DNA of 34,058 nt, taken from the IMG/VR virus record IMGVR_UViG_3300032320_002496, positions 1 to 34,058 of that record; one strand, written 5' to 3'. Below the pieces are notes generated by a model that saw only the letters and a program-made list of their open reading frames with translations, ran no database searches and had not been told where the DNA came from. The DNA is from a virus (Duplodnaviria; Caudoviricetes). Below, in pieces: positions 6,935-27,550 of this stretch; the stretch's first letter is position 1, and the number at the start of each line of letters is the position of its first letter. Made by a program: the position numbers and the translations under genes.

Positions 6935-7809
6935 ATGAATCACGGATCTTTATTTAGCGGTATCGGAGGCTTTGACTTAGCCGCAGAATGGGCCGGATGG
7001 AATAATATTTTTCATTGCGAGTGGAATCCGTTTGGCCAAAGAGTTTTAAAACACCATTTTCCAAAATCAATATCATACAATGACATTACTAAAACAGACT
7101 TCACTATTCACAAAGGAGCAATTGATATCTTATCCGGAGGGTTCCCATGCCAACCATACTCAATGGCCGGACTTAGAAAAGGAAAAGAAGATGAACGCCA
7201 TTTATGGCCAGAGATGCTTAGAGCAATTCGAGAAATTCAACCAAGTTGGGTGGTGGGCGAAAACGTTAGCGGGCTTATTAATTGGGGGGGGGGGTGGTAT
7301 TCAATGAGGTGCAAACTGACTTGGAAACTGAAGGGTACGAAGTACTCCCGTTTCTACTTCCAGCTTGCGGCGTCAACGCTCCGCACCGAAGAGACCGAAT
7401 TTGGTTTATTGCTTACACCAACAACGAGAGAGGAAATAGTAGACTTAGAAAAATTCAAACAGAGAATGGAAAAGTATCCGAATGGTACAACGATGCCGAA
7501 TTTAGCAACGCAAGTAATGACTTTACTTCCGACACCTCAAGCAATGGAGGGCGGAAAAATTACGGGCTTAGAGAATCAAGACTCATTAACGAAAAGAGCA
7601 AGACAAATGAGTGGCAAAATTTCCCAACTGAATCCCCGCTTTGTGGGGGAGATGATGGGATTTCCAAAGAGTTGGACGGAATTACCTTTTCAAAGTGGCG
7701 TAACGAATCAATCAAAGCATACGGAAACGCAATAGTTCCGCAAGTAGCATACGAAATTTTTAAAACCATAAAACAAATAGAACATGAAAAAAGAAACCCG
7801 CGGCCGTAA
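6935..7809 (+). CDS. C5-cytosine DNA methyltransferase alpha subunit, frame interrupted at poly-G 7284-7294
   Basis: Motif I FSGIGG, IV GFPCQ and VI ENV lie in the 6935 frame; VIII HRRDRIWFIA and X GNAIVPQV lie in the 7282 frame; one extra G joins them into 291 aa. Confidence 0.85.
7080..7735 (+). CDS. Overlapping alternative-frame methyltransferase beta subunit (variable region + motif IX), interrupted by the same poly-G
   Basis: With G12 the 7080 ORF joins WYSMRCKLTWK...LPTP...LNPRFVGEMMGFPKSWTEL (motif IX-like), giving 218 aa. Confidence 0.72.
7284..7294 (+). repeat. G11 homopolymer inside the methyltransferase locus
   Basis: ATT-GGGGGGGGGGG-TGG, exactly at the frame break. Confidence 0.9.
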
Positions 7810-11660: not shown

Positions 11661-11891
11661 ATGGAAGGTATAATACTACCCTTGCTTTGCCACAACGATA
11701 ACACAATTTTATTTGATGAACTTGGTATCGAGTACAATTACGAGAACTTAACGCGTGTTGAGTTTATGTTTTTTACTATTGACTATGCTTGTAGCAATGT
11801 AAAGAACGATCGCGAGTTTACAGAAATAGTAAGCATGGGCGAAAGCTTTGTAGTTGACTTAACCTGGGATGAATTTAAAAAGCTATTTTAA
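11661..11891 (+). CDS. Hypothetical protein (probable start MEGIIL)
   Basis: ATG right after the previous stop; TAATG coupling to the next gene. Confidence 0.65.
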   Translation: MEGIILPLLCHNDNTILFDELGIEYNYENLTRVEFMFFTIDYACSNVKNDREFTEIVSMGESFVVDLTWDEFKKLF

Positions 11892-12898
11892 TGATACAAG
11901 TACTAGGCATTACACAAAAGATAAGTGGCTGCGGGTGGCATAGGGTGATGCTACCTTTAGCATTTATGCCAGATGCTTATAACCATGTTACTAACGTACC
12001 TACTAAAGAAATACTTGAAGAGCGTGGATTTGATATTATGCTTTATAATAGGTTTAGTCCTTTTGACAATGCGTGGGATGAAACTAAGCAGCACTTTAAA
12101 GTGGTGATGGATTTAGACGATGATTGGGAGTTGCCATATAATCATCCTTTATTTCAATACTACGAGCCACAAAAGAAACGAGTAGTAAATAATATCTTTA
12201 ATGCTGACTTGGTGACATGTACCAACGAGCGAATAGCCGACAAGGTAAATAAGTATAACAAGAATGTTTTAATACTACCTAATTGCATACCACTAGGCGA
12301 GCAACAATACACCGACTTTAGACACGAAAGCGATTTGGTGCGCATTTTTTGGGCGGGAGGTTCTACGCACTTAGAAGATATTAGGCTACTTGTAAACCCA
12401 TTAAAAAGACTTACTGCGAATAAAGGTTTTGAAATGGTTTTAGGCGGTTACACGGATAGTGATCCGGTTAGCAAAAACTACTGGGATCAAGTACACCACA
12501 TGTTTACTTTTGGTAATAAGTTTACTAATAGAAAACTTAAGAGTGAGTTGCCAAATAATTACATGACACATTTTGAACATGCTGATATTATGTTAGTACC
12601 TTTACAAGAAAGCGAGTGGCACGCATGTAAAAGTAATCTTAAGATACTAGAAGCTGCAAGCAAACGCATAGCGGTAATTTGTAGCTATGTAGAACCATAT
12701 AGCAAAGATAGCGACGCACCGGTGCTTTGGGTTAAAAGCCAAGGCGATTGGTATAAACATATAAACTATTTATTAAACAACCCTCAAGAAAGGATTAAGC
12801 TAGGCCAAGACCTTTACGAGTGGGCAAAAACAAACTACAACTATGAGTCAATCGGAGCCACTAGACGCGAGGCATTTGGAGACCTTGTTAAGACATAA
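11891..12898 (+). CDS. Glycosyltransferase, GT-B fold (GT4-like)
   Basis: SGCGWHR, MDLDDD, WAGGSTH, ADIMLVPL...KSNLKILEA motifs. Confidence 0.85.
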   Translation: MIQVLGITQKISGCGWHRVMLPLAFMPDAYNHVTNVPTKEILEERGFDIMLYNRFSPFDNAWDETKQHFKVVMDLDDDWELPYNHPLFQYYEPQKKRVVNNIFNADLVTCTNERIADKVNKYNKNVLILPNCIPLGEQQYTDFRHESDLVRIFWAGGSTHLEDIRLLVNPLKRLTANKGFEMVLGGYTDSDPVSKNYWDQVHHMFTFGNKFTNRKLKSELPNNYMTHFEHADIMLVPLQESEWHACKSNLKILEAASKRIAVICSYVEPYSKDSDAPVLWVKSQGDWYKHINYLLNNPQERIKLGQDLYEWAKTNYNYESIGATRREAFGDLVKT

Positions 12899-13085
12899 GC
12901 ACTTTTACGATTTGTTTAAAGCAACCGGTGAACTGGTAGCGTTTACGCATGAAGTACAAAACGAACTTTTAGAAGTCATGCGCACACGTAATGCTTACTA
13001 TACGTATAACAACCGATGCGGTGCATGCGTAGGAACCTTTTTAGTTAACGTTTATAATACATTTAATGAGCAACTTCATACATAA
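12843..13085 (+). CDS. Hypothetical CxxC protein
   Basis: RCGAC motif; overlaps both neighbours. Confidence 0.6.
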   Translation: MSQSEPLDARHLETLLRHKHFYDLFKATGELVAFTHEVQNELLEVMRTRNAYYTYNNRCGACVGTFLVNVYNTFNEQLHT

Positions 13086-13551
13086 GACGGCAATAGTAGG
13101 GCCAAACGTAACCCTTGGCGACAATATTTATATCGGGCCTTATTGCGTAATAGGGGAACCAGCCGAGTATAAATTATTTTGGAATGCACCAATAGGCGAA
13201 GTGGTGATAGGTGACAACTGCGTAATAACTGGCCATGTAACTATCGACGCCGGTACTACTGAAAAGACAATGATTGGATCTGGAACCTGGATGCTAAAGC
13301 ATAGCCACGTAGGACACGATTGCCAAATAGGTACTAACGTAACGATAAGCTGCGGAGCAAAGATAGGCGGCCATACAAGGATTGGCAACCATTGTAATAT
13401 AGGACTTAACGCAGTCATTCATCAAAAGCAAGTAATTGCTCCGGGTTGTATGATTGGTATGGGTGCCGTAGTAACTCGCAAGCTTTATACTACCCACTCG
13501 ACTAAGTACGCTGGTAACCCGGCAAAAGAAATAGGTAAAAACATAGTCTAA
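13066..13551 (+). CDS. Left-handed beta-helix (hexapeptide) acyl/acetyltransferase, LpxA/PglD-like
   Basis: Hexapeptide repeats, HVGHDC, YAGNPAK. Confidence 0.88.
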   Translation: MSNFIHKTAIVGPNVTLGDNIYIGPYCVIGEPAEYKLFWNAPIGEVVIGDNCVITGHVTIDAGTTEKTMIGSGTWMLKHSHVGHDCQIGTNVTISCGAKIGGHTRIGNHCNIGLNAVIHQKQVIAPGCMIGMGAVVTRKLYTTHSTKYAGNPAKEIGKNIV

Positions 13552-14150
13552 TGAAAATACTTATAGCTGGCTTAACTTATGGCAAAAGGCCTTTAATGCA
13601 AATAGATTTAAACATGGCTAATGCCGGTTATCCCTTTAATTATATTAATATAAATATTGAAGGCATAGCTAACGCTATGAACGAAGCTATTGACATTGCC
13701 GGTGTTGATGGCTACGATGCTATTGCATATTTAGCTAATGATATAATAGAGCCGGACAATTGGCTTGCTAAAAAGGTAGAAGCGTTGCAGACTTACCCAA
13801 ACGCGGGTATTGTGGCTAGTAGTTTAGATAGGGTTAGGCGTGGTGTTAATAGCCAGCACATTATAAGCAACTGGTTACTTAGCATGAAAGTAGTTAATAA
13901 AATAGGCATCTTTAACGAGTCAATGTTCCCTTATGGGCCAATAGACTTAGACTACTGCGAGCGGGCCAACCTTGCCGGATTTAATACTTACTATGTAATG
14001 GATTGTCTTGCCGAACATATTGGCGGGCATGGAAGCGGTGACGAATACGGATATAATAAAGCCGAATTATTACAAAAGAACTGGGCCAAGCACGAAGCAG
14101 ATATAAGAGGCTACCGCGATGGCACTAAAAATATTAAACTATGGAAATAA
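13551..14150 (+). CDS. Glycosyltransferase, GT-A fold (GT2-like)
   Basis: GIANAMN, AYLANDI, IGIFNE...YGPIDLDYCER motifs. Confidence 0.8.
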   Translation: MKILIAGLTYGKRPLMQIDLNMANAGYPFNYININIEGIANAMNEAIDIAGVDGYDAIAYLANDIIEPDNWLAKKVEALQTYPNAGIVASSLDRVRRGVNSQHIISNWLLSMKVVNKIGIFNESMFPYGPIDLDYCERANLAGFNTYYVMDCLAEHIGGHGSGDEYGYNKAELLQKNWAKHEADIRGYRDGTKNIKLWK

Positions 14151-16520: not shown

Positions 16521-17124
16521 GGAGGGTGGCGACTTAGGTGGCAGCAATATTGTTGAGTTTGGAGTAGTTGCTAGTATGCTTGAACAATATGGTGCGGAGT
16601 TGCTTACAAATATTAGCTACTTTGGTAACAATAAAGGCGTTGTCGGTAGTGGTGATTTGCTTAGTAGTATGGTGCCGGAATTAACCGAGGAAAACGGCGT
16701 AGACATATTTAGGTTAAGGATGCTAGATTATTACGACTATCCCAACGAAGGGGTAAAAGGCGTTAATAGTTCTAGTAATGCTCCGGGATCACCTTACCAA
16801 TATAGAAACTACGGAATGAGTAGCGAAGGTAGGGCATCACTTAAAAAGTATATACTAAGTGGTAAGGCAAAGATTACTAGCGTAAGAAATGATAAGGCGC
16901 TAGGTAAGGGCGGCGAAAAGATAGGCGTAGCATTTAGTAATAAGACTTTAATAGATAAGCAAGTAGACACGCTTGCTTATTTGATTAAACGCTTTGGTAT
17001 TAAAAAGACTAACTACTTTACGGATGCGTTTAACAAGACTTTTAAAAGTTTTGAGGTTGACATGGTAGAAGCCGCCGGAAGGGATATAGTGATAACATTT
17101 AATAGATTAAATAAAAGAAAATAA
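16480..17124 (+). CDS. Putative tail completion/neck protein
   Basis: SGDLLSS...GIKKTNYF pattern reminiscent of HK97 gp10-like proteins; structural context. Confidence 0.5.
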   Translation: MSININKAQADFLREGGDLGGSNIVEFGVVASMLEQYGAELLTNISYFGNNKGVVGSGDLLSSMVPELTEENGVDIFRLRMLDYYDYPNEGVKGVNSSSNAPGSPYQYRNYGMSSEGRASLKKYILSGKAKITSVRNDKALGKGGEKIGVAFSNKTLIDKQVDTLAYLIKRFGIKKTNYFTDAFNKTFKSFEVDMVEAAGRDIVITFNRLNKRK

Positions 17125-18254
17125 TGGCAATAACAAACTTAGCCTATCCTAGTGGAAGTCCAAGCTTACAAGATACGCTTTGGCATATCTTTGATTCAAA
17201 TATAACAAGCGCAGACTTAAAGTATGTGATGGATATATACGTAGGCGGTACACAACAAGTAAGAGTAAAACTTTACCCGGAACCAACAACCGGCATAGGC
17301 TATTTTGATGCCGGGCCTATTGTAAGAAACACAATGACTTACGAATGGCTAACACCTAACAACAATGTATTAATGTGTCAGCCTAGCGTAAGCGGACAAG
17401 TGGCACAAACTTACCAATATAGAATAGGTGAAGAGACAAGTGGCGTAACTACATTAAACTTAGCTAGCGGAAGCGTAACGGCTTATAACTTTGTACCTCC
17501 TACGTTTAAGCGTAAGGTTACAGATTTAAGCGCATACAATGGTAAGGCAATGACAAACAGACCAACAACAATAGAATATAGTTTAGGCGAAAATCTTTAT
17601 ATTCCATGTAAAGATGTAAGCGGTTTAGTAGTTAGTACTTATAATGCTAACAACTTAAAGATAGCAGATACTACTTATAGTTTAGGTGGCACCAAGGCAT
17701 TTGCTCAATTAAACATTGGATCACCGGCTTTAAACAATCCAACTAGTGTTATTACAAGTGCGGTTAAATATTATTTAGTGCAAATAGGATCTAGCAGTTA
17801 TCAAGTAAACATTAATTGCAACCCTAAATATACAAGCTATAACTTACATTTTATGAATCATCTAGGTATGTTTGACACCGCTAAATTTGATTTAGCTAGC
17901 AGACTTACCATGGATGTATCGCGTAAAAGCTTTACTAAAAGAGACTACTCTTTAGGTGCTAGTGCAGTTAGTTATTATGATGCTAATAATAAATATGTAA
18001 GCAGTAAGATAGATTATTTAAACAAAAAAGATCATAGCTACAAGCTTACAATGAATGCGCCGACGGATGCCGAATACGAATGGCTTGCCGAATTAATAGA
18101 CTCGCCGCAAGTTTACTTTGAGTTAGATGGCTACTTTTACCCAGTAAGTATTAAGAATAATAGCTACGAGTATAGCAAATATGTAAACAATAGGCTTAGA
18201 GTGCTTGAGGTTGACATAGATATAAACCAAACGCGATATAGCCAATTAAGATAA
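17124..18254 (+). CDS. Tail structural protein (distal tail-like)
   Basis: Beta-rich; FMNHLGMFD and ELIDSPQVY motifs; precedes the large tail-tip gene. Confidence 0.55.
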   Translation: MAITNLAYPSGSPSLQDTLWHIFDSNITSADLKYVMDIYVGGTQQVRVKLYPEPTTGIGYFDAGPIVRNTMTYEWLTPNNNVLMCQPSVSGQVAQTYQYRIGEETSGVTTLNLASGSVTAYNFVPPTFKRKVTDLSAYNGKAMTNRPTTIEYSLGENLYIPCKDVSGLVVSTYNANNLKIADTTYSLGGTKAFAQLNIGSPALNNPTSVITSAVKYYLVQIGSSSYQVNINCNPKYTSYNLHFMNHLGMFDTAKFDLASRLTMDVSRKSFTKRDYSLGASAVSYYDANNKYVSSKIDYLNKKDHSYKLTMNAPTDAEYEWLAELIDSPQVYFELDGYFYPVSIKNNSYEYSKYVNNRLRVLEVDIDINQTRYSQLR

Positions 18255-18255
18255 T

Positions 18256-21200
18256 ATGACTAGAATATTTATTGAAGGATACGAACTAGATTTAACAACC
18301 GGACTAAGTAACCAAATTACTTACGCCATTGATGACTTACAAAACTTAGATAGTAAAAGTACAAGCTTTACTAAAACTATTATACTTCCAGGGACTGCTA
18401 ACAATAATAAGCTATTAGGTAATATCTTTGAATTTAACAACGCAAACTTTGACAACCCTTTAGATGCTAACGTGCTAGCAAACTTTAATGCAGCACGCAA
18501 CGCGGTAGCACGAATAGAAGTAAACGGCTTACAAATAATGAAGGGCGTTTTAAGACTTTTAGAAATAGTGCATATAGACGGAGCAATAGAATATGAATGC
18601 GCATTATTTGGCGAACTTGGTGGCTTTATTAATGCACTTGGCAATAGTAGAATTGAAGATTTAAACTTTAGTTCTTACAATCATACTTATAGCTATGCAA
18701 ATATTGTAAGCAGTTGGGACACTAGCGGAAGTACCGGTTATTGTTACCCTTTAATTGATTACGGAAATGTAAGCACGGGAACTTATGGCGTTGCTAAAAA
18801 AGACTTTCAATATACTACATTTAAACCGGCCTTATTTTTAAGAGAATATATAACAAAGATAATTGCAAATAGCGGTTATTCTTACGAGTGTGATTTTTTT
18901 GATACTACTAAGTTTAGAAATATAGTTGTGCCTAATAACCAAAAGCAACTAACAAAAGAGACTAACAATGTTCTTGCTTTAACTAAAGCAATTAATCAAG
19001 TAATGAATACCGGAGGTACTCAAGACTTTGTAAGCTACGAAACTAAGGTAGGTAGCTTATTTACTGCAAGCGTTGGCGATACTACTTTTACTTATACCGG
19101 TACACCTACTTTAACTACTAATTTAACAATAGAACTTTTTGGGGATTATATTTTAGCTGCAAGACCTTTAACAATAGCTTTGCTAAAAAATGGCGTTGTA
19201 ATTCCTTTAAGTAGCCAAACGTATAACGGCACCGATTTACTTTATTATAACAAAACATTAAGCGTTCAATTTGCTACTAACGATACTTTAAGAGTTAGGA
19301 CTACTTGCGTACTTGATGGCGGCGACGAAGTCAATGTTAGTGAAAGTACTATAAACGTTTTAAACGATATAGCTACAACGGCACCTATTGAATTAGGTGA
19401 TACAATGATTATTAATAACACTATCCCAAAAGGTATATTTCAAAAAGACTTTTTTATATCAGTACTTAAAATGTTTAATCTTTTAGTTACTGAAGATAAG
19501 AATAGGACTAACCATTTAATAATTGAGCCATACATTGACTTTTGGGGTGGCTCTATATTAGATTGGTCGGACAAGATGGATAGAAGCAAGGCTATTAAGA
19601 TTAAGCCTATGAGCGAAATAAACGCTAGATACTACAATTTTAAATTTAAACAAGACAATGATTTTTATAATGAAGACTATCGTAAAAAATTTAATGAGGG
19701 ATATGGTGATATAATTTACGATAATGGCCTTGAATTTGCAAAAGATACTGAAAGTGTTGAAGTAATATTTGCTTCAAGCCCGTTATTTGGTACTAATACA
19801 ACGGACAAGGTTTTTCCGGCCATTTATAAAAAGTCTAACGAGAATACTAAAGAGGATCCTATGGATCACATAGTACGAATAATGCAGATAAAGAAAGTTA
19901 CGAGTATTGCTAGTTGGAATATTTTAAACCTTGCAACTAACCTAGGATCTAACACCGCTTATTTATATGCGGGTCATTTAAACAATCCTACTACGCCAAC
20001 CGATGATATTAATTACGGAGCGCCAAAGCAATTATATTTTAATTTAACAAGTGGCGACTTAAGTAATAACTTATTTAATACTTATTATTCTTCTTACCTT
20101 GCAGAGATAACCGATAAAGATAGCCGCTTACTAACGGCATATTTTAACCTTACAGACTTAGATATTTTTAACCTAGACTTTAGTAAGTTTATTTATATTG
20201 ATGGAGGTCTTTATAGAATTAATAAAGTAATAGATTATGCGCCCGAAAATAATGAATTAACAAAAGTTGACTTATTAAGAGTTATTGAAAAGGAATATAT
20301 TGAGCAACCGCCATTGCCTACAACAACAACAACTACTACAAGCACAACAACTACTACTACAACATTAGCTACTTTTATTGCATCTTATAGCATGGTAAGT
20401 GCTTATGATGTATGCAATGTAGTATGTCCTAATCCAGCAAGACCAGTAGAAACATTTACTATTTTAGCGGGTGGTAATACGCTATGTACTGCAACTAAAT
20501 TAACAAGTACCTTAATTGCTAACGGAACTATAACCGGCAATTTTTGGTTAAGTGCATGTAGCGGAACTAGTAGACAATTTACTATTATTATTGAAGGAGG
20601 TCAATTTGTAGCCGTATGGGCCGAGGAGACTTGTCAAACTTGTCCAGCGGTTACAACAACCACCACAAGTACAACTACTACAACTACAACGCCGGCACCT
20701 ACAACAACTACAAGTACAACTACTACTACTACTACATTAGCTACTTTTAACGCCTCGTTTAGCATGGTAAGTGCTTATGATGTATGTAATGTAGTATGTC
20801 CTAATCCAGCAAGGCCGATAGAAACATTTACTATTTTAGCGGGTGGTAATACACTATGTACTGCAACCAAGATAACAAGTAATTTAATTGCTATCGGAAC
20901 TATAACCGGCAATTTTTGGTTAAGCGCTTGTACTGGAACTAGTAGACAATTTACAATTATTATAGAAGGTGGCCAATTTGTAGGGGTATGGGCTGAAGAG
21001 ACTTGCTCTACTTGTCCGGCCGTAACTACTACTACAACTAGTACTACAACTACTACAACAACACCGGCGCCAACTACTACAACTAGTACTACAACTACTA
21101 CTACAACGCCGGCGCCAACTACTACAACTAGTACTACAACTACTACAACAACACCGGCACCAACTACTACAACTAGTACTACAACTACTACTACAACGCC

Positions 21201-21744
21201 GGCACCTAACCATAGCTATCAAGCTACAAGGTGTAGTGATGGCGCTACAAGTACTTTAATTGTATCAAGTACTAAAAGTGTTGGTTCGGTTTATACAAGT
21301 GCGCCAAGTGGAATTAGTCAATGTTATACTTTAACAAGTTATAACGGGCCGGTAGATATAGCTACAAACATAACTTTATACACTTCAGTTTTAGAATGTG
21401 CTGACTCAGCATGTATTCAGCCGGCTACAACTACAACAACAAGTACTACAACAACAACTACTACGGCTGCGCCTACAACAACAAGTACAACAACTAGTAC
21501 TACTACTATTGGTTATACTTATTATATTTTAGATAGATACATGTGTGATCCTTGTACTTTAGATGCTTCAAGCGTAGCAATTGCAAGGTCTACAAATAGC
21601 GGCTTAAACGCTTTATTCTTTAACTTTGCAAACGGATACGTTTACTTATCAAATGGTACAACAAGCGGAAGTTCTTACGACTTTGACATAGATACAGAAA
21701 GCGCTAAGAGTGGAGCAGATTGTACGGACGTATGCCAACTTTAA
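18256..21744 (+). CDS. Tail tip/baseplate hub-like protein with mucin-like Thr-rich, Cys-module C-terminal extension
   Basis: About 690-aa N-terminal tail-protein-like region (SFTKTIILPGT, YPLIDYG, YRINKVIDY), then poly-Thr stalks and Cys-rich modules. Confidence 0.75.
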   Translation: MTRIFIEGYELDLTTGLSNQITYAIDDLQNLDSKSTSFTKTIILPGTANNNKLLGNIFEFNNANFDNPLDANVLANFNAARNAVARIEVNGLQIMKGVLRLLEIVHIDGAIEYECALFGELGGFINALGNSRIEDLNFSSYNHTYSYANIVSSWDTSGSTGYCYPLIDYGNVSTGTYGVAKKDFQYTTFKPALFLREYITKIIANSGYSYECDFFDTTKFRNIVVPNNQKQLTKETNNVLALTKAINQVMNTGGTQDFVSYETKVGSLFTASVGDTTFTYTGTPTLTTNLTIELFGDYILAARPLTIALLKNGVVIPLSSQTYNGTDLLYYNKTLSVQFATNDTLRVRTTCVLDGGDEVNVSESTINVLNDIATTAPIELGDTMIINNTIPKGIFQKDFFISVLKMFNLLVTEDKNRTNHLIIEPYIDFWGGSILDWSDKMDRSKAIKIKPMSEINARYYNFKFKQDNDFYNEDYRKKFNEGYGDIIYDNGLEFAKDTESVEVIFASSPLFGTNTTDKVFPAIYKKSNENTKEDPMDHIVRIMQIKKVTSIASWNILNLATNLGSNTAYLYAGHLNNPTTPTDDINYGAPKQLYFNLTSGDLSNNLFNTYYSSYLAEITDKDSRLLTAYFNLTDLDIFNLDFSKFIYIDGGLYRINKVIDYAPENNELTKVDLLRVIEKEYIEQPPLPTTTTTTTSTTTTTTTLATFIASYSMVSAYDVCNVVCPNPARPVETFTILAGGNTLCTATKLTSTLIANGTITGNFWLSACSGTSRQFTIIIEGGQFVAVWAEETCQTCPAVTTTTTSTTTTTTTPAPTTTTSTTTTTTTLATFNASFSMVSAYDVCNVVCPNPARPIETFTILAGGNTLCTATKITSNLIAIGTITGNFWLSACTGTSRQFTIIIEGGQFVGVWAEETCSTCPAVTTTTTSTTTTTTTPAPTTTTSTTTTTTTPAPTTTTSTTTTTTTPAPTTTTSTTTTTTTPAPNHSYQATRCSDGATSTLIVSSTKSVGSVYTSAPSGISQCYTLTSYNGPVDIATNITLYTSVLECADSACIQPATTTTTSTTTTTTTAAPTTTSTTTSTTTIGYTYYILDRYMCDPCTLDASSVAIARSTNSGLNALFFNFANGYVYLSNGTTSGSSYDFDIDTESAKSGADCTDVCQL
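20362..21024 (+). repeat. Duplicated Cys-rich module (period 372 nt / 124 aa)
   Basis: AGCATGGTAAGTGCTTATGATGTATG at 20389 and 20761; near-identical protein copies. Confidence 0.9.
21061..21207 (+). repeat. 45-bp tandem repeat encoding TPAPTTTTSTTTTTT
   Basis: Units start at 21061, 21106, 21151 and 21196 (partial). Confidence 0.9.
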
Positions 21745-21755
21745 AATAAAAATAA

Positions 21756-22721
21756 ATGATATATATTTGTACACAACCTAAGATTATTTATTACGCATGG
21801 CATTTGGAAGTTATGCTTACCAACTTTAAGTCGGTAGGCATACCCGATGATAAAATACACGTTTTGTTATCTGTAAGTAAAGACCAGGAAGATAAAACTA
21901 ACTTGCCCGAAACAAAGCAAATGTTTGATAGGCTAAAAGAAAAGTTTAGAAATATAGCTTTCTTTGAGTACACCGATACAAGGGTGATGCCTACTTATAT
22001 ACCAAGCGTAATAATGAACGCAGTAAAACACCATTATAAAGCTTACCCATATTTGCAAATGGAGAATGTTTTTTTACATGATTGCGATATGATATTTACA
22101 AAGCCGGTAGACTTTACGGACTTAGAGCAAGACGATTCATGTTATGTAAGCGATAGTAAAAGCTTTATTTGGAGTGATTACATATTAGAGAAAGGCCAAG
22201 ACCTTTACGAAGATATGTGCGACATTGTAGGCCTAGATTATAGCGTGCCAATAAAACACCGATTACATAGTGGGGGTAGTCAATATATTTTTAAAAATAT
22301 AGACTATAAGTTTTGGCAAAAGGTAGAAAGCGATAGCGTGGCTTTATTTGATTATTTTCAAAAAAGCGAACCTTTAAGAGTACAAAAAAATCCGGCTTAC
22401 TATGGCATTCAACAATTTACGGCGGGTATGTGGGGCATGCTTTGGAATTGCTGGTACTACGATTTAGATGTAAAGATTACAGATAGACTCGATTTTTGCT
22501 GGGGTACCGATCCGATAGAAAAATGGGCCAAGTGTCATATTTTTCATAATTCGGGCGTAACCTATGATATTGGTAAAAGTCATAATATATTTTACAAAGG
22601 TGCTTATACCGATAAGCTACCTTATGAAGACGTTATGAATAACGAATACAATGAGGCCTTTGGTTCTTATAATTATACTAACCTAATAAGACAAGTAGGT
22701 TTAAATACTTGTTTAAAATAA
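21756..22721 (+). CDS. GT-A glycosyltransferase resembling peptide O-glycosyltransferases (HPAT/SERGT-like)
   Basis: YYAWHLEVM N-terminal motif, FLHDCDMIF DxD motif, FTAGMWG, IFHNSG; directly after the Thr-rich gene. Confidence 0.6.
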   Translation: MIYICTQPKIIYYAWHLEVMLTNFKSVGIPDDKIHVLLSVSKDQEDKTNLPETKQMFDRLKEKFRNIAFFEYTDTRVMPTYIPSVIMNAVKHHYKAYPYLQMENVFLHDCDMIFTKPVDFTDLEQDDSCYVSDSKSFIWSDYILEKGQDLYEDMCDIVGLDYSVPIKHRLHSGGSQYIFKNIDYKFWQKVESDSVALFDYFQKSEPLRVQKNPAYYGIQQFTAGMWGMLWNCWYYDLDVKITDRLDFCWGTDPIEKWAKCHIFHNSGVTYDIGKSHNIFYKGAYTDKLPYEDVMNNEYNEAFGSYNYTNLIRQVGLNTCLK

Positions 22722-22727
22722 TAAAAC

Positions 22728-24311
22728 ATGGCAACTAAAAAGACACAAGTAGTAGTAGAAATAAAAACTGATTCAACGCAAGCAACAAGCGAAGCCAATA
22801 AAACCAAAGACGAAGTCGCTGGTATTGGTAAAGCTGCGGCCGGAAGTATTGCCGAACTAAAAGAACTTAAAAAGCAGTTAAAAAATACCGCAGCCGGTTC
22901 CGAAGAGTTTAAGACTTTATTTAATCAAATTGATGATTTAGAGGATAAAATTAAAGGATCTAAGAAAGCTTCAAGCGATTGGATTGATACTTTAGAAAGT
23001 GCCGGAGGGCCTTTAGGTATGTTGGGAGGCGCGCTTAATAGAGCAAAGGTTGCAACTACTAGCTTTAGTGCTGCGTTAAAAGCTACCGGTATTGGTTTAA
23101 TTGTTTCTTTAGTTGCCGGACTTGCCGCAGCGTTTGCTAAAAACGAAAGCGCAATGAAAAAGCTTGAGCCTATAATGACTCAAGTAGGTAGATTATTAAA
23201 CGGAATTTTAGGAGCAATGCAGCCCTTAATTGATAGCTTTATTAATTTTGCAGAAAGGGCTTTGCCTTATGTAACGCAAGGTTTTAAAGTTGCTTATAGT
23301 GCTTTAAGTTCTTTTTTACAAGGTATTGGAATGGTAGGCTCGGCGGTTAAAAAGTTTATAAGTGGTGATTTTGCCGGAGCCTGGGACGATGCTAAAAAGT
23401 CAGTTACCGAATTTGGTACTAGATATGAAGATGCAAATAAGCGTTTTATTGCCGGAAGCCAAGAATTAACAGATAAAGAAAAAGCAGAACAAGAAAAAAG
23501 ACTAGCGGATCAAAAAGCTGCAAACGAAAAGGCAGCCGCAGAAAGAAAAGCCGAAGATAAAAGAAAGGCAGCCGAAGAGAAAGCAAGACTTGAAAAAGCC
23601 AAAGCAGACGCTAAAGCTTACGAAGATTTTGATACAGAATTGCAACAAAGATTAATGCAACTTCAAGAAGAGAAAGACGCTAAAGAAACTGCAAGACTTG
23701 AAAAAGCCGCCGCTGAAGCTAAAGCTTATAATGATTTTGAAATAAAATTAGCACAAGATCTTTTAAAACTTGAAGAAGAAGCCACTGCTAAAAAAATATT
23801 GCTTGCGGATCAAGAACTTCAAGCAAAATTAGCATTAGCTAACGCGATAGGTAATATTGCCGGAGGGTTATCCGCACTATTTGAAAAAGGCACAACCGCT
23901 TCAAAGATAGCCGGACTGGCAGAAATAGCAATAGGCACCGGAGTTGGATTTATACAAGGCTTAGATATTGCACAAAAGGGAGCAAAAGCAACCGGCCCGG
24001 CTGCGCCTTTTGCATTTCCTATTTTTTATGCGTCTCAAATTGCCGCAGTACTTGGAGCAGTTAGCAGAGCAAAAAGCGTAATGACTCAAGTAAAGGGAGG
24101 CAGTGGGCCTTCGTTTAGTGTTTCAGCTCCGACAATTCCTAGGGTAAATGCAGCGGCACCTTTAGCGGCGCAAGCAAGCACAACAACTTTAAACCAAGCG
24201 CAAATTAATCAAATAGGAAATGTAGCAGCTAGAGCCTATGTAGTTGAAAGCGACATAAGCGGTAACCAAGAACGTGTTTATAGACTTAACCGCGCTGCTA
24301 GAATTAATTAA
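22728..24311 (+). CDS. Tape measure protein
   Basis: Ala/Gly-rich helical protein, LKATGIGLIV segment, charged coiled coil, AYVVESDI C-terminal motif. Confidence 0.75.
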   Translation: MATKKTQVVVEIKTDSTQATSEANKTKDEVAGIGKAAAGSIAELKELKKQLKNTAAGSEEFKTLFNQIDDLEDKIKGSKKASSDWIDTLESAGGPLGMLGGALNRAKVATTSFSAALKATGIGLIVSLVAGLAAAFAKNESAMKKLEPIMTQVGRLLNGILGAMQPLIDSFINFAERALPYVTQGFKVAYSALSSFLQGIGMVGSAVKKFISGDFAGAWDDAKKSVTEFGTRYEDANKRFIAGSQELTDKEKAEQEKRLADQKAANEKAAAERKAEDKRKAAEEKARLEKAKADAKAYEDFDTELQQRLMQLQEEKDAKETARLEKAAAEAKAYNDFEIKLAQDLLKLEEEATAKKILLADQELQAKLALANAIGNIAGGLSALFEKGTTASKIAGLAEIAIGTGVGFIQGLDIAQKGAKATGPAAPFAFPIFYASQIAAVLGAVSRAKSVMTQVKGGSGPSFSVSAPTIPRVNAAAPLAAQASTTTLNQAQINQIGNVAARAYVVESDISGNQERVYRLNRAARIN

Positions 24312-24346
24312 AAGTACATAACCTATAAAAAAGATATTTATAAAGT

Positions 24347-25393
24347 ATGGACTTACCTATTTACGAACTTAAGATTCAAGAAGAGTTGCAAGACGATGCC
24401 GAGGTTTCGTTTATTGCACTTGTAGACAAGCCGGCTATTCAACGTGACTTTGTGGCCTTTTCTCAAGATTTTATACAACCAACTAAAGGCGAAGGCAAAG
24501 ATGCATTTTTACCTAGATGTATTAGTTATATTATTAATGAAGGTAAAGAAAGTGAACAAGCCGTAGCTATATGCAATTCAATGTGGGAGCAACACTTTGC
24601 CGAAGATTCATATAATGATTACCCGGAGTCAGCTAAAAATAATGCAGAAAGGGCAATAAAATTAAACGATAATCTTAATAACAAATGCGCTACTCAAGTA
24701 GGTAAGGTAAGAGCGCAACAAATAATGAAAGGCGAAAACTTAAGCAAAGAAACTATAAAGCGCACCTATTCTTATTTAAGTAGAGCAAAAGAATATTATA
24801 ACCCAAGCGATAGCGAGGCTTGCGGAACTATTAGTTATCTTTTATGGGGTGGTGATCCAATGTTAAATTGGTGCGAATCTAAAATGAATAATCAAGATTT
24901 TAAGTCAGCATCTATGGCATTTGCTATCCAGGACGAAGACAAACATATTATAAGCGGGCCATTGATGTTAGCGGATAAGCCTATTTATAGAAACAATAAG
25001 AAATTTGGCGAACACTTTGTGACATTTAGCGCAGAGACTATTAAAGACATAGCTATTAAATTTAGCAAGAAAGGATACCAAGGCAATGTTAATTTAATGC
25101 ACGACCAGGATATGCAGCTTGAAGGTCTTATTATGTTTGAAAGCTTTATAGTTGACAAAACTAGAGGCATACATCCTATGGCGGGTTTTGAAGACGCTAA
25201 AGATGGTTCTTGGTTTGGGAGCTTTTATGTAGAAAACGAAGAAGCATGGCGATTAATTAAACAAGGCAAAGTAAAAGGCTTTAGCGTTGAGGGTTACTTT
25301 GAATACCCTAGCGAAAAGAAGGCGCCTACTTATGCAGAACAAAAACTAGCAGAACTAGCGGAGTTATTAAAAGTACCTTTACAACTTAAATAA
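24347..25393 (+). CDS. Prohead protease (XkdF-like serine protease) with inserted domain(s)
   Basis: IALVDKPAI, NLMH, GSWF, VKGFSVEG motifs; precedes scaffold and capsid. Confidence 0.8.
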   Translation: MDLPIYELKIQEELQDDAEVSFIALVDKPAIQRDFVAFSQDFIQPTKGEGKDAFLPRCISYIINEGKESEQAVAICNSMWEQHFAEDSYNDYPESAKNNAERAIKLNDNLNNKCATQVGKVRAQQIMKGENLSKETIKRTYSYLSRAKEYYNPSDSEACGTISYLLWGGDPMLNWCESKMNNQDFKSASMAFAIQDEDKHIISGPLMLADKPIYRNNKKFGEHFVTFSAETIKDIAIKFSKKGYQGNVNLMHDQDMQLEGLIMFESFIVDKTRGIHPMAGFEDAKDGSWFGSFYVENEEAWRLIKQGKVKGFSVEGYFEYPSEKKAPTYAEQKLAELAELLKVPLQLK

Positions 25394-25404
25394 TATATAT
25401 AAAC

Positions 25405-25989
25405 ATGGAACAAGCACAAAACATTCTTAACAAAGTTTCTATGTTCTTTGCAGAACTAGTAGGAAACGAATCAATGCCTATGCCAAGCGGCGAGACTGCG
25501 GCACCGGTAAAAATGATGGAAGCCAAATTATTAGATGGCACTATCGTTGAAGTAACTGAATTAGCGGTAGGTGGTATCGTAACTATTGAAGGTGTACCGG
25601 CTCCGGTTGGCGAACATACTTTAGAAAATGGCGATATGATTGTACTAGGTGATAATGGCGTTATCATGGAAATTAAGCCAAAGATGGAAGACGAAGTTTC
25701 AGTAGAAGTAGAAGTACCAGTAGTTGAAGACATGAGCGCAAAGTTTGCAGCTTTTGAATCAGCAACAAACGAGAAATTTACTGCATACGAATCTAAGTTT
25801 GCACAATACGAAGCTAAATTAGTACAAGCAAACAAAGTAATTGAGGGATTAATGCAAATTAGCAAAATGCTAGTTGAAGCACCTCAAAGCGCACCGGATG
25901 CTGGTGTTAAAACAAGCAACGCTTTTGCGGATCAAAAACTAGATGCAAAGAGCGAGTTCGAGAAATTCTCAAAATCAATTTGTTCATAA
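25405..25989 (+). CDS. Capsid scaffolding protein
   Basis: Acidic; PAPVGEHTLENG motif; coiled coil; between protease and capsid. Confidence 0.7.
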   Translation: MEQAQNILNKVSMFFAELVGNESMPMPSGETAAPVKMMEAKLLDGTIVEVTELAVGGIVTIEGVPAPVGEHTLENGDMIVLGDNGVIMEIKPKMEDEVSVEVEVPVVEDMSAKFAAFESATNEKFTAYESKFAQYEAKLVQANKVIEGLMQISKMLVEAPQSAPDAGVKTSNAFADQKLDAKSEFEKFSKSICS

Positions 25990-26007
25990 ACTAAAAATTA
26001 AAATAAA

Positions 26008-26967
26008 ATGGCATTATCATTCAGCGGCATAAGCGCATATACTAAAGAGCAGATTGCGCCCTTATTAACCGAAGCAGTTTTCTCTGCAAAAACACAAACT
26101 TACTTAAAAGCGGGTGGTATCTTATTACCTAAAGTTAAGTCAAGCGTAAAAATCCCTAAGTTAGCTACAAACGCTAACTTCCAAACTGATTCTTGCGGTT
26201 GGAACCCTAGTGGTACAACTACTTTAAGCCAAGCAAGTGTTACGGTTGGTAAAATCAAAATCGAAGAAACAATTTGTCCTAAAGATTTCGAAGCTTACTT
26301 CTCTCAAGAAGCTTTAAAAGCGGGATCAACTTACGAAGATTTTGGATGGGCTGATTTCCAAACTAAGTTCACAGAGCAAAAGAACAAAATGATTGCTAAG
26401 CAATTAGAAGTTGCAATTTGGCAAGGTGATACTACAAGTGCAAATCCTAACTTAAGCCCGTTTGATGGTTTAATCAAATTAATTGATGCGGGTTCTGCGG
26501 TTAACGCAAACGTATCTGGTTACGTATCGGGTGGCCCAATTGCAACAATTACTGCTACTAACGTAGTAAGTATTTTAAATGCAGTTTACAAAGCTATTCC
26601 GGTTGAGATTATTGATGCTGAAGACTTAAAAGTTATGGTTGGTAACGATGTTTACAGATTAGCAGTATTAGCTTACCAAGCATTAAACCTTTACAACTAC
26701 AAAGTTGACGGAGACGCAAACCAAACTTTTGTGATCCCAGGAACAAACGTAGAATTAGTAGCGGTTAACGGATTGAACGGAACCGGTGATATTTACGCAA
26801 CAACTTTGTCTAATATCGCTATGGCGTTTGACTTAGAAGCTGAAGAAGAAAACTACATGATTTGGTATTCTAAGGATAATAACGAAATGCGTTATAGAGT
26901 AGCTTTCAAATTAGGTGTAAACGTAGCTTACACAACTTTATGTGTTAAGTTCAAGTCTGCAATCTAA
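26008..26967 (+). CDS. Major capsid protein
   Basis: 319 aa after the scaffold; IWQGD...FDGLIK motif; strong codon bias; followed by a terminator. Confidence 0.85.
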   Translation: MALSFSGISAYTKEQIAPLLTEAVFSAKTQTYLKAGGILLPKVKSSVKIPKLATNANFQTDSCGWNPSGTTTLSQASVTVGKIKIEETICPKDFEAYFSQEALKAGSTYEDFGWADFQTKFTEQKNKMIAKQLEVAIWQGDTTSANPNLSPFDGLIKLIDAGSAVNANVSGYVSGGPIATITATNVVSILNAVYKAIPVEIIDAEDLKVMVGNDVYRLAVLAYQALNLYNYKVDGDANQTFVIPGTNVELVAVNGLNGTGDIYATTLSNIAMAFDLEAEEENYMIWYSKDNNEMRYRVAFKLGVNVAYTTLCVKFKSAI

Positions 26968-26983
26968 TTAATATATAATCAAG

Positions 26984-27014
26984 AAAAGGCGGTTAAATAA
27001 GCCGCCTTTTTTTT
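26984..27014 (+). terminator. Rho-independent terminator
   Basis: AAAAGGCGGTT-loop-AGCCGCC followed by T8. Confidence 0.85.
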
Positions 27015-27028
27015 AAACTTTTTTTAAC

Positions 27029-27550
27029 ATGCCATGTGTAATTACTAGCGGATATACAATAGATTGCCGCGAAAACATAGGAGGCCTACAAGCCGTTTTT
27101 TTAGCCGAGTTCGGTAATATTAGCGCAGTAGCAGAGGTAAGCGGTTTAGTTACCGGCATTACTAAAGTAGTAGGTAAAAGATTTTACAAGTTTGAGGTGC
27201 CACGTGCAACCGCAAATACAAGTTCTAACGCAACCGCTTCCGAAGAGAATGGATCAGTATTCTATACTCATTCAGTAGTTTTCCCTTTAAACAAAAGAGA
27301 TTCTACAACTGCAAACATTGTACGTACTTTAGCTAAAAATAAGCTAATTGCGGTTACTTTAGATATGGATGGCGTTTATAGAATGTACGGCGAGAATAAC
27401 GGGCTTTACTTAGCCTCTACTGAGTCAACAAGTGGTACCGCTGCGGGAGATCGTAACGGATACAATATTACTTTAACCGGTATTGAAAAGGATGACTTTT
27501 TACAAGTAAGCGCTAGTGTAGGTGCTGCGCTTGAGACTGCTGGAGTGTAA
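27029..27550 (+). CDS. Probable major tail (tube) protein
   Basis: C-x9-C...GG N-terminus, ENGSVFY, SGTAAGDRNGY; has its own terminator. Confidence 0.6.
   Translation: MPCVITSGYTIDCRENIGGLQAVFLAEFGNISAVAEVSGLVTGITKVVGKRFYKFEVPRATANTSSNATASEENGSVFYTHSVVFPLNKRDSTTANIVRTLAKNKLIAVTLDMDGVYRMYGENNGLYLASTESTSGTAAGDRNGYNITLTGIEKDDFLQVSASVGAALETAGV

Follow-up and report, generated by a model that had tools for sequence, protein, structure and literature searches.

The tail-tip gene of an uncultured tailed phage encodes a protein with a C-terminal extension that carries long runs of threonine, and the gene immediately downstream probably encodes an enzyme that places the first sugar on such runs. The phage (IMG/VR record IMGVR_UViG_3300032320_002496; Duplodnaviria, Caudoviricetes) was analyzed over all 34,058 nucleotides (nt), hereafter the window, which is a complete 34 kb virus record with direct terminal repeats. 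We assign a probability of about 0.75 to the reading that the enzyme initiates O-glycosylation at poly-Thr tags carried by virion proteins, because it is modeled with a type A glycosyltransferase (GT-A) fold, its active site is conserved, its gene is under purifying selection, it shows remote homology to HPAT-family proteins, and enzyme and Thr runs are gained and lost together in three groups of phages. The tail-tip open reading frame (ORF; 18256-21744, + strand) encodes 1162 amino acids, comprising a 687-residue core with the predicted fold of a baseplate hub and a 474-residue extension. The enzyme ORF (21756-22721, 321 amino acids) starts 11 nt later and, as the original prediction placed it, lies between the tail tip and the tape measure gene, the latter assigned by a weak match to PHROG 3336.

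21756 to 22721, + strand: predicted GT-A glycosyltransferase of PHROG 4417, with a DxD motif at 22080 to 22088 and conserved His264; remote HPAT-family relative

The enzyme belongs to PHROG 4417 (E 5.6e-54), which is unannotated; it matches no Pfam or NCBIfam family, and sequence searches of the PDB returned nothing significant. Its structural model has a predicted local distance difference test (pLDDT) score of 96.4 and adopts the Rossmann-like GT-A fold on which the original prediction had staked its claim. The model aligns with LgtC and glycogenin at Z 14.8, with a root-mean-square deviation (rmsd) of 3.3-3.5 over ~230 residues, and Foldseek matches it to glycogenin at E 1.3e-6, while its identity to any solved enzyme is at most 15%. 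The first beta strand begins at residue 2, and the model has no signal peptide or membrane anchor. The predicted DxD motif (HDCD) is borne out, with D109 and D111 invariant in 41 aligned homologs. Across 358 domains, D109, D111, G174, Q176, M225, W226, F247, and K281 are 100% conserved and H264 is 99% conserved, so that the DxD, GGxQ, and MW motifs, His264, and Lys281 together range from 93 to 100%. The enzyme thus possesses both the conserved DxD and the C-terminal His of GT-A glycosyltransferases. Its gene is under strong purifying selection, with dN/dS of 0.017-0.058 in nine of ten pairs and the remaining pair saturated. The family as a whole comprises 1,010 clusters at 50% identity (E up to 0.001, phage and bacterial members together), and many members are fused to further glycosyltransferase domains, namely GT2, GT6, GT7-like, and GT29.

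The nearest solved folds belong to the GT8 and GT24 families (LgtC, glycogenin, GlyE, and UGGT; Z 13-15), which share the DxD motif and C-terminal His with the phage enzyme. In contrast, identity to these enzymes is 9-14%, no Pfam GT8 match was found among alignments of 41 and 28 phage-family members, so that the likeness is one of fold only, and GT8 and GT24 enzymes mostly lengthen existing glycans. The original prediction had also noted a resemblance to plant HPAT (GT95), which survives as remote homology, reached through bacterial PF23452 proteins, but not as a match to the PF23452 (HPAT/GT95) model, which found 0 of 41 and 0 of 28 phage-family members at E up to 1. In a Candidatus Microthrix genome, a genuine PF23452 protein lies 4 kb from a member of the phage-enzyme family and close to a frame containing Thr-rich repeats, and six of six scanned bacterial relatives exceed the Pfam cut-off, two of them fused to PqqD (the range P0273-P0277 holds fusions). 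In hhalign, an alignment of 41 of the 83 relatives of the Candidatus Microthrix protein scored 94.6% (E 7e-8, 252 columns) and 92.6% against two phage-family alignments, with collinear motifs, compared with 0.05% for the hub alignment, which served as the profile control. The enzyme therefore appears to be a remote relative of HPAT-family proteins rather than a member, with full-length homology drawn through bacterial sequences. An Atlas cluster of look-alikes carries PF23452 on 10% of its members. Searches with PF23452 of the phage's own genome, 40 records, and 301 Bacteroidota genomes gave no match, and the control was equally silent, so that this negative carries no weight. HPATs, which are relatives of SGT1, attach the first sugar of a glycan chain to hydroxyproline in peptides (PMC8012813); GT95 is predicted to be GT-A-like, whereas GT96 is described as a novel fold (PMC8476585). 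By analogy, the phage enzyme would share with HPAT a predicted GT-A-like fold and chain-starting transfer to peptide hydroxyls of repetitive stalk proteins. It differs in being modeled as soluble, with no type II Golgi membrane anchor, and in having Thr rather than hydroxyproline as the candidate acceptor. In the Candidatus Microthrix locus (L243, 5178-13018; G121), the PF23452 gene and a 1012-amino-acid member of the phage-enzyme family flank the frame ending in Thr-rich repeats, and the locus looks like a PqqD-associated peptide-modification cluster.

The putative acceptor is found in residues 689-1162 of the tail-tip protein, where four Thr runs are set between four Cys-rich modules:

20317 to 20364, + strand: Thr stalk 1, 16 amino acids
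20365 to 20652, + strand: Cys-rich module 1, 96 amino acids, 6 Cys, no family
20653 to 20736, + strand: Thr stalk 2, 28 amino acids
20737 to 21024, + strand: Cys-rich module 2, 91% identical to module 1 (duplicate)
21025 to 21207, + strand: Thr stalk 3, 61 amino acids, a repeated Thr-Pro-Ala-Pro-Thr-run unit
21208 to 21420, + strand: Cys-rich module 3, 71 amino acids, differs among relatives
21421 to 21507, + strand: Thr stalk 4, 29 amino acids
21508 to 21744, + strand: C-terminal Cys-rich module 4, 78 amino acids, replaced by other modules in most relatives

The original prediction described ~470 residues of poly-Thr stalk interspersed with Cys modules. The alternation stands but the size does not: the runs, at residues 688-703, 800-827, 924-984, and 1056-1084 (16, 28, 61, and 29 residues), total only 134 of the 474 residues, of which 103 are Thr and 10 Ser. 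The extension contains 20 cysteines, compared with 4 in the hub core. Modules 1, 3, and 4 have no Pfam match at E up to 10, and thus no detectable homology to the Cys-rich domains of mucins; PHROG and the Atlas gave no lead for the Cys-rich modules, which are swapped among relatives. The architecture of Thr/Ser/Pro stalks alternating with small Cys-rich domains does resemble that of mucins and extensins, but the resemblance is an analogy: the modules lack a Pfam family, the stalks add up to 134 residues, and the protein is a phage hub put together in the cytoplasm. We rejected a DNA microsatellite artifact because Thr codons are mixed in the stalks (ACA 48, ACT 49, ACG 4, ACC 2) and because, of the 24 close relatives for which upstream DNA is present, 23 keep the frame open. 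Among the other ORFs of at least 30 amino acids in the window, none reaches 8 Thr in 12 residues. In close relatives, the same hub also occurs with an alternative Cys-rich repeat extension of 519-651 amino acids that is free of Thr runs and has no family match (L047 and L048, 10059-11996; L051-L056; L063).

If enzyme and Thr runs form one system, they should be found together. Querying IMG/VR with the hub core alone, blind to the enzyme, retrieved 57 loci. Thr runs are present in 8 of these, and the enzyme gene adjoins the hub gene in all 8. In another 5 loci the sequence breaks off inside the tail gene or at its end. Neither a run nor an enzyme is present in the locus for the remaining 44, of which 11 have an extension of another, Thr-free kind, among them relatives that share 78% identity in the hub core. 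In the whole records of the 49 enzyme-less loci, a single enzyme copy was found elsewhere (in G074), corresponding to 1 of 19 among records with a completeness of 90% or more. The run/enzyme label switches four times on a quick tree of 65 hub cores, with at least three switches forced by starred branches. Extension and enzyme move as one cassette in the hub clade: the enzymes are 90-94% identical on hub cores that are only 54-93% identical.

The same pairing is seen in phages with unrelated carrier proteins. A query with the tail-tube core of Enterococcus phage phiFL1A returned 20 loci, 9 with the enzyme and 11 without. C-terminal runs occur on the tail tube, and on a gene in the capsid position ~3 kb upstream, in 9 of 9 enzyme-bearing loci, and on neither in the 11 that lack the enzyme. 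In Staphylococcus phage SA2, runs are found on the protease, the tail tube, and a small protein, and all five relatives (38-88%) lack both gene and runs. We examined 11 of the 75 cultured phage records matched by the enzyme (phiFL1A, MA9V-3, iLp84, VFW, phiCTP1, SA2, bIL285, PLE3, 1706, Semele, and TPWB06), and every one has Thr runs close by, borne by capsid, tail tube, portal, protease, or small proteins. In Lactococcus phage 1706, the products of orf10 (capsid/protease) and orf13 (major structural protein) finish in 9-10 Thr, and orf14 is the enzyme gene; bIL285 is also a Lactococcus phage, and PLE3 and iLp84 are Lactobacillus phages. Many Firmicutes phages have the runs as short tags at the C terminus of capsid and tail-tube proteins, and nothing follows the tag. 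Starting instead from the enzyme in 80 more distant viral loci (L025-L039 and L100-L164; 69 with a run), and after dropping 5 with less than 1 kb upstream, a run is present in 66 of 75, directly upstream in 49 of the 66; clustering at 70% identity leaves a run in 20 of 23 clusters. The 120 Thr-run carrier proteins sort into 44 groups and come from phages whose hosts belong to different phyla. Joint gain and loss in three phage groups supports the pairing of a peptide O-glycosyltransferase with Thr stalks. Two of the three refuting conditions named with the original prediction were examined, the GT-A fold and the co-occurrence with Thr-run structural proteins, and both outcomes favor it. The original link to mucin-type tail stalks was too narrow, with the Thr-run pairing upheld but specific to neither the tail nor a mucin architecture.

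Several observations weigh against this interpretation. Gene and extension are physically linked in the hub clade, so counts from that clade are not independent, and by itself the clade would be compatible with hitch-hiking of the enzyme gene. Independent contrasts are few: the Enterococcus set amounts to two changes and two independent pairs (p 0.5). At the threshold used, 9 of the 75 viral enzyme loci have no run, 3 of them with weaker Thr tracts and 6 with none nearby. G074, a 98% complete record, contains the enzyme and no Thr run in the stretches read, which cover the whole record, and is a real exception. The converse is more frequent. From a pattern scan of IMG/VR we estimate ~6,000 poly-Thr stretches, yet the enzyme is in the locus for only 10 of 78 poly-Thr loci of at least 4 kb (after removal of one locus in which no run could be read, and with two contigs counted twice), for 8 of 36 after short frames, edges, and single-codon repeats were filtered out, and in 1 of 34 further whole records, most of which are fragments. 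G033 (83 kb, 99% complete) has tagged tail proteins and no enzyme. Enzyme patterns give ~1,100 stretches among 2.9 million contigs, so that 13% of poly-Thr loci represents a very large enrichment, although the units differ. In summary of these counts, the enzyme is nearly always accompanied by runs, and runs often occur without the enzyme. In L315/L316 (G033), L246/L247, L314, and L257, tail proteins or other structural proteins have poly-Thr tags at the C terminus and the enzyme family is absent from the records searched; another enzyme may serve tagged phages that lack this family. In G074 (L373, 377-2677), the enzyme gene lies apart from the tail genes and is followed by a methyltransferase-like gene and another glycosyltransferase-like gene, both labeled by eye.

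These exceptions bear on what else the enzyme might do. The hitch-hiking explanation holds that the enzyme only travels with Thr-rich linkers and glycosylates a different target, be it DNA, a small molecule, or a receptor on the host surface. Physical linkage in the hub clade, run-less copies beside other glycosylation genes (G074 and L035), and the abundance of poly-Thr with no enzyme all fit it. However, hitch-hiking is made less likely by the position of the tags on several non-adjacent genes, where runs come and go with the enzyme; the carriers are also unrelated proteins in phages of different host phyla, and a model with no signal peptide or membrane anchor does not suit the alternative target, leaving this explanation with little probability. 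A slightly greater, still small, chance attaches to the proposal that the Thr runs stay bare and are bound by the protein, which would have no catalytic activity and serve as a chaperone or as a partner attached to the virion. In its favor, Thr runs occur with no enzyme, and nearly all of the cultured carriers examined have the gene within their structural operon. Against it, metal- and donor-binding positions are invariant in phage and bacterial members alike, and the annotation of phage 1706 lists the gene as 'unknown' but several of its neighbors as structural.

The foremost of the alternatives, itself improbable, accepts that the enzyme acts on Thr runs and proposes that it adds a sugar-phosphate or polyol-phosphate, like some phosphotransferases with a GT-A fold. 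Stealth-type phosphotransferases do share the fold (CpsY, Z 10.2; GNPTAB, Z 10.1), and with no solved enzyme above 15% identity the chemistry could differ. Against this, true glycosyltransferases lead by more than 4 Z units, the enzyme shows homology to HPAT-family proteins, and members of its family are frequently fused to GT2, GT6, GT7-like, and GT29 domains, as a chain starter should be. Finally, the stalks could be glycosylated by a host enzyme or by other phage glycosyltransferases, since positions 11891-14150 of the window, just before the terminase genes, contain three genes of interest here: one is GT-B-like (PHROG 7162), one encodes an LpxA-like hexapeptide acetyltransferase, and one is GT2-like. 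These genes do not track the stalks: in the 33 enzyme-less relatives with enough upstream DNA, the GT-B-like gene is present in 29, the hexapeptide acetyltransferase in 15, and the GT2-like gene in 15, which makes this the least probable explanation and led us to reject the three genes as stalk-specific partners. They appear instead to form a second glycosylation module that is spread through the clade irrespective of the Thr cassette, and they could lengthen a first sugar.

As an initiating O-glycosyltransferase, the enzyme would act in the host cytoplasm late in infection, with a host nucleoside diphosphate sugar and a divalent metal, and would add the first sugar to the Thr runs of the hub extension, giving sugar-coated stalks at the tail tip. 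Hubs of the gp27-like fold are trimers. On each of the three copies, stalks 16-61 residues long would hold apart four small modules that are probably locked by disulfides. More broadly, a Thr run would be a portable acceptor tag, suited to any end or linker that a virion protein exposes. Because the tag is terminal in many Firmicutes phages and no domain follows it, its purpose in general is more likely to be a glycan coat, forming a hydrophilic surface resistant to proteases and binding, than spacing, which may be an additional role in the present phage.

The nearest known system is the virion glycosylation of mycobacteriophages, known for Che8 (gp108-110), Corndog, and Myrna and said to shield particles from antibodies (Freeman et al, 2023, as cited in PMC12363180). 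Both systems would use phage-encoded glycosyltransferases on capsid and tail-tube proteins, the same classes that are tagged in the Firmicutes carriers. In the present system, in contrast, a single gene within the structural operon is paired with poly-Thr tags, the hosts are Firmicutes and probably Bacteroidota, and glycosylation is a prediction. Homology to the Che8 enzymes was rejected: hhalign gave 1.0% for gp108, 0.3% for gp109, and 0.1% for gp110, these single sequences being the only other glycosyltransferase comparison made as a control. No mycobacteriophage is among the 75 cultured phage records matched by the enzyme. In the open-access literature covered, we found no description of poly-Thr tags paired with this enzyme. 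Thr is not among the residues that a survey of low-complexity regions names as most enriched in phages, which are Ala, Gly, and Pro (PMC6821194).

Homologs in bacteria also point to peptide acceptors. Among 80 bacterial genome loci, 20 have Thr runs, many of them in what by eye is phage or prophage DNA. The other loci are mostly from Chitinophaga, Pedobacter, and Sphingobacterium, usually with a second glycosyltransferase-like domain in the protein. Regular-expression searches of the 80 loci identified a peptidase-exporter motif in 33, a short peptide with a Gly-Gly leader in 32, and either in 44, false positives included. Eight loci (L177, L184, L185, L191, L199, L201, L211, and L214) resemble Bacteroidota clusters for peptides that are made on ribosomes and modified after translation (RiPPs), with Gly-Gly-leader peptides that have a Thr-rich stretch at the start or end of the core; in L185, L199, L201, and L214 the Thr-rich stretch is followed by a Cys-rich part. 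The leaders resemble those of Bacteroidetes lanthipeptides (PMC7268733), and the labels lanthipeptide, radical SAM, and ATP-grasp were given to neighboring genes by eye. The combination of enzyme and Thr-rich precursor in Bacteroidota is a candidate class of glycosylated RiPPs. Here, too, there is a counterweight: lanthipeptide-type precursors are rich in Ser and Thr anyway, and the comparison covers enzyme-bearing clusters only.

Taking phages and bacteria together, we lean, by a narrow balance, toward an unrecognized, HPAT-related family of peptide O-glycosyltransferases that reads a portable poly-Thr tag, with phages of at least two host phyla using it to coat capsids, tail tubes, and tail tips, and Bacteroidota using it to glycosylate secreted RiPPs. 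If this is true, glycosylation of phage particles would be common, with dairy, enterococcal, and staphylococcal phages among the examples, and the enzymes that act on plant wall proteins would have prokaryotic kin performing the same chemistry. The single-gene system would be distinct from that of mycobacteriophages and present in ~1,000 sequence clusters, including well-studied cultured phages in which the gene is annotated 'hypothetical'. It would bear on particle stability, immune recognition of therapy phages, and gaps in structural proteomics, and a small soluble enzyme with a tag of 9-12 residues would be a possible tool for cytoplasmic O-glycosylation.

The remaining features of the tail genes are as follows:

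18256 to 20316, + strand: baseplate hub (tail tip) core, residues 1-687, from the AlphaFold model, VIA-align matches to hubs, and relatives
18952 to 19386, + strand: TNF/C1q-like jelly-roll insert, approximately residues 233-377, from Foldseek and VIA-align
22728 to 24311, + strand: probable tape measure protein, PHROG 3336 at E 5e-4, directly after the hub in cassette-less relatives

The hub core has no Pfam, NCBIfam, PHROG, or PDB sequence match significant enough to name a family, and the predicted identity as a tail tip is held up by fold instead. An AlphaFold model of residues 1-680 (pLDDT 71) suggests a gp27-like baseplate hub (Tal) fold in the N-terminal core, with VIA-align matches to gp27-like hubs at Z 11-14 over ~260 residues, the best being the baseplate of cyanophage A-1(L) (Z 13.9, rmsd 3.9 over 267 residues). 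Many of the relatives in the 57 IMG/VR loci stop directly after the core. The jelly-roll insert matches BclA-CTD (Foldseek, E 5.5e-7) and C1q, and in VIA-align it matches the cyanophage A4 tail and BclA at Z 13.4 and the A-1(L) fiber CBD at Z 13.1; judged from the model, it is possibly a carbohydrate- or receptor-binding domain. The tape-measure-like ORF (527 amino acids) begins 6 nt past the enzyme gene.

At the level of Pfam and PHROG, the window encodes terminase, portal, protease, capsid-like, tail fiber, and replication proteins, as in a small tailed phage. The host is perhaps a member of the Bacteroidota, a weak guess made because the best cultured-phage match of the enzyme is from a Chryseobacterium phage (39% identity) and the sole cultured-phage match of the hub is from an Elizabethkingia phage (E 1e-4). 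Scans for promoters and terminators in the window were at chance level. The gene order across 17124-27550 is odd, with hub, tape measure, protease, scaffold, capsid, and probable tail tube followed by the portal gene last. At 6935-7809, a C5 DNA methyltransferase spans two overlapping frames (6935-7735 and 7282-7809), and the Pfam match stops at residue 116 of the first frame, close to a run of G, suggesting a frameshift.

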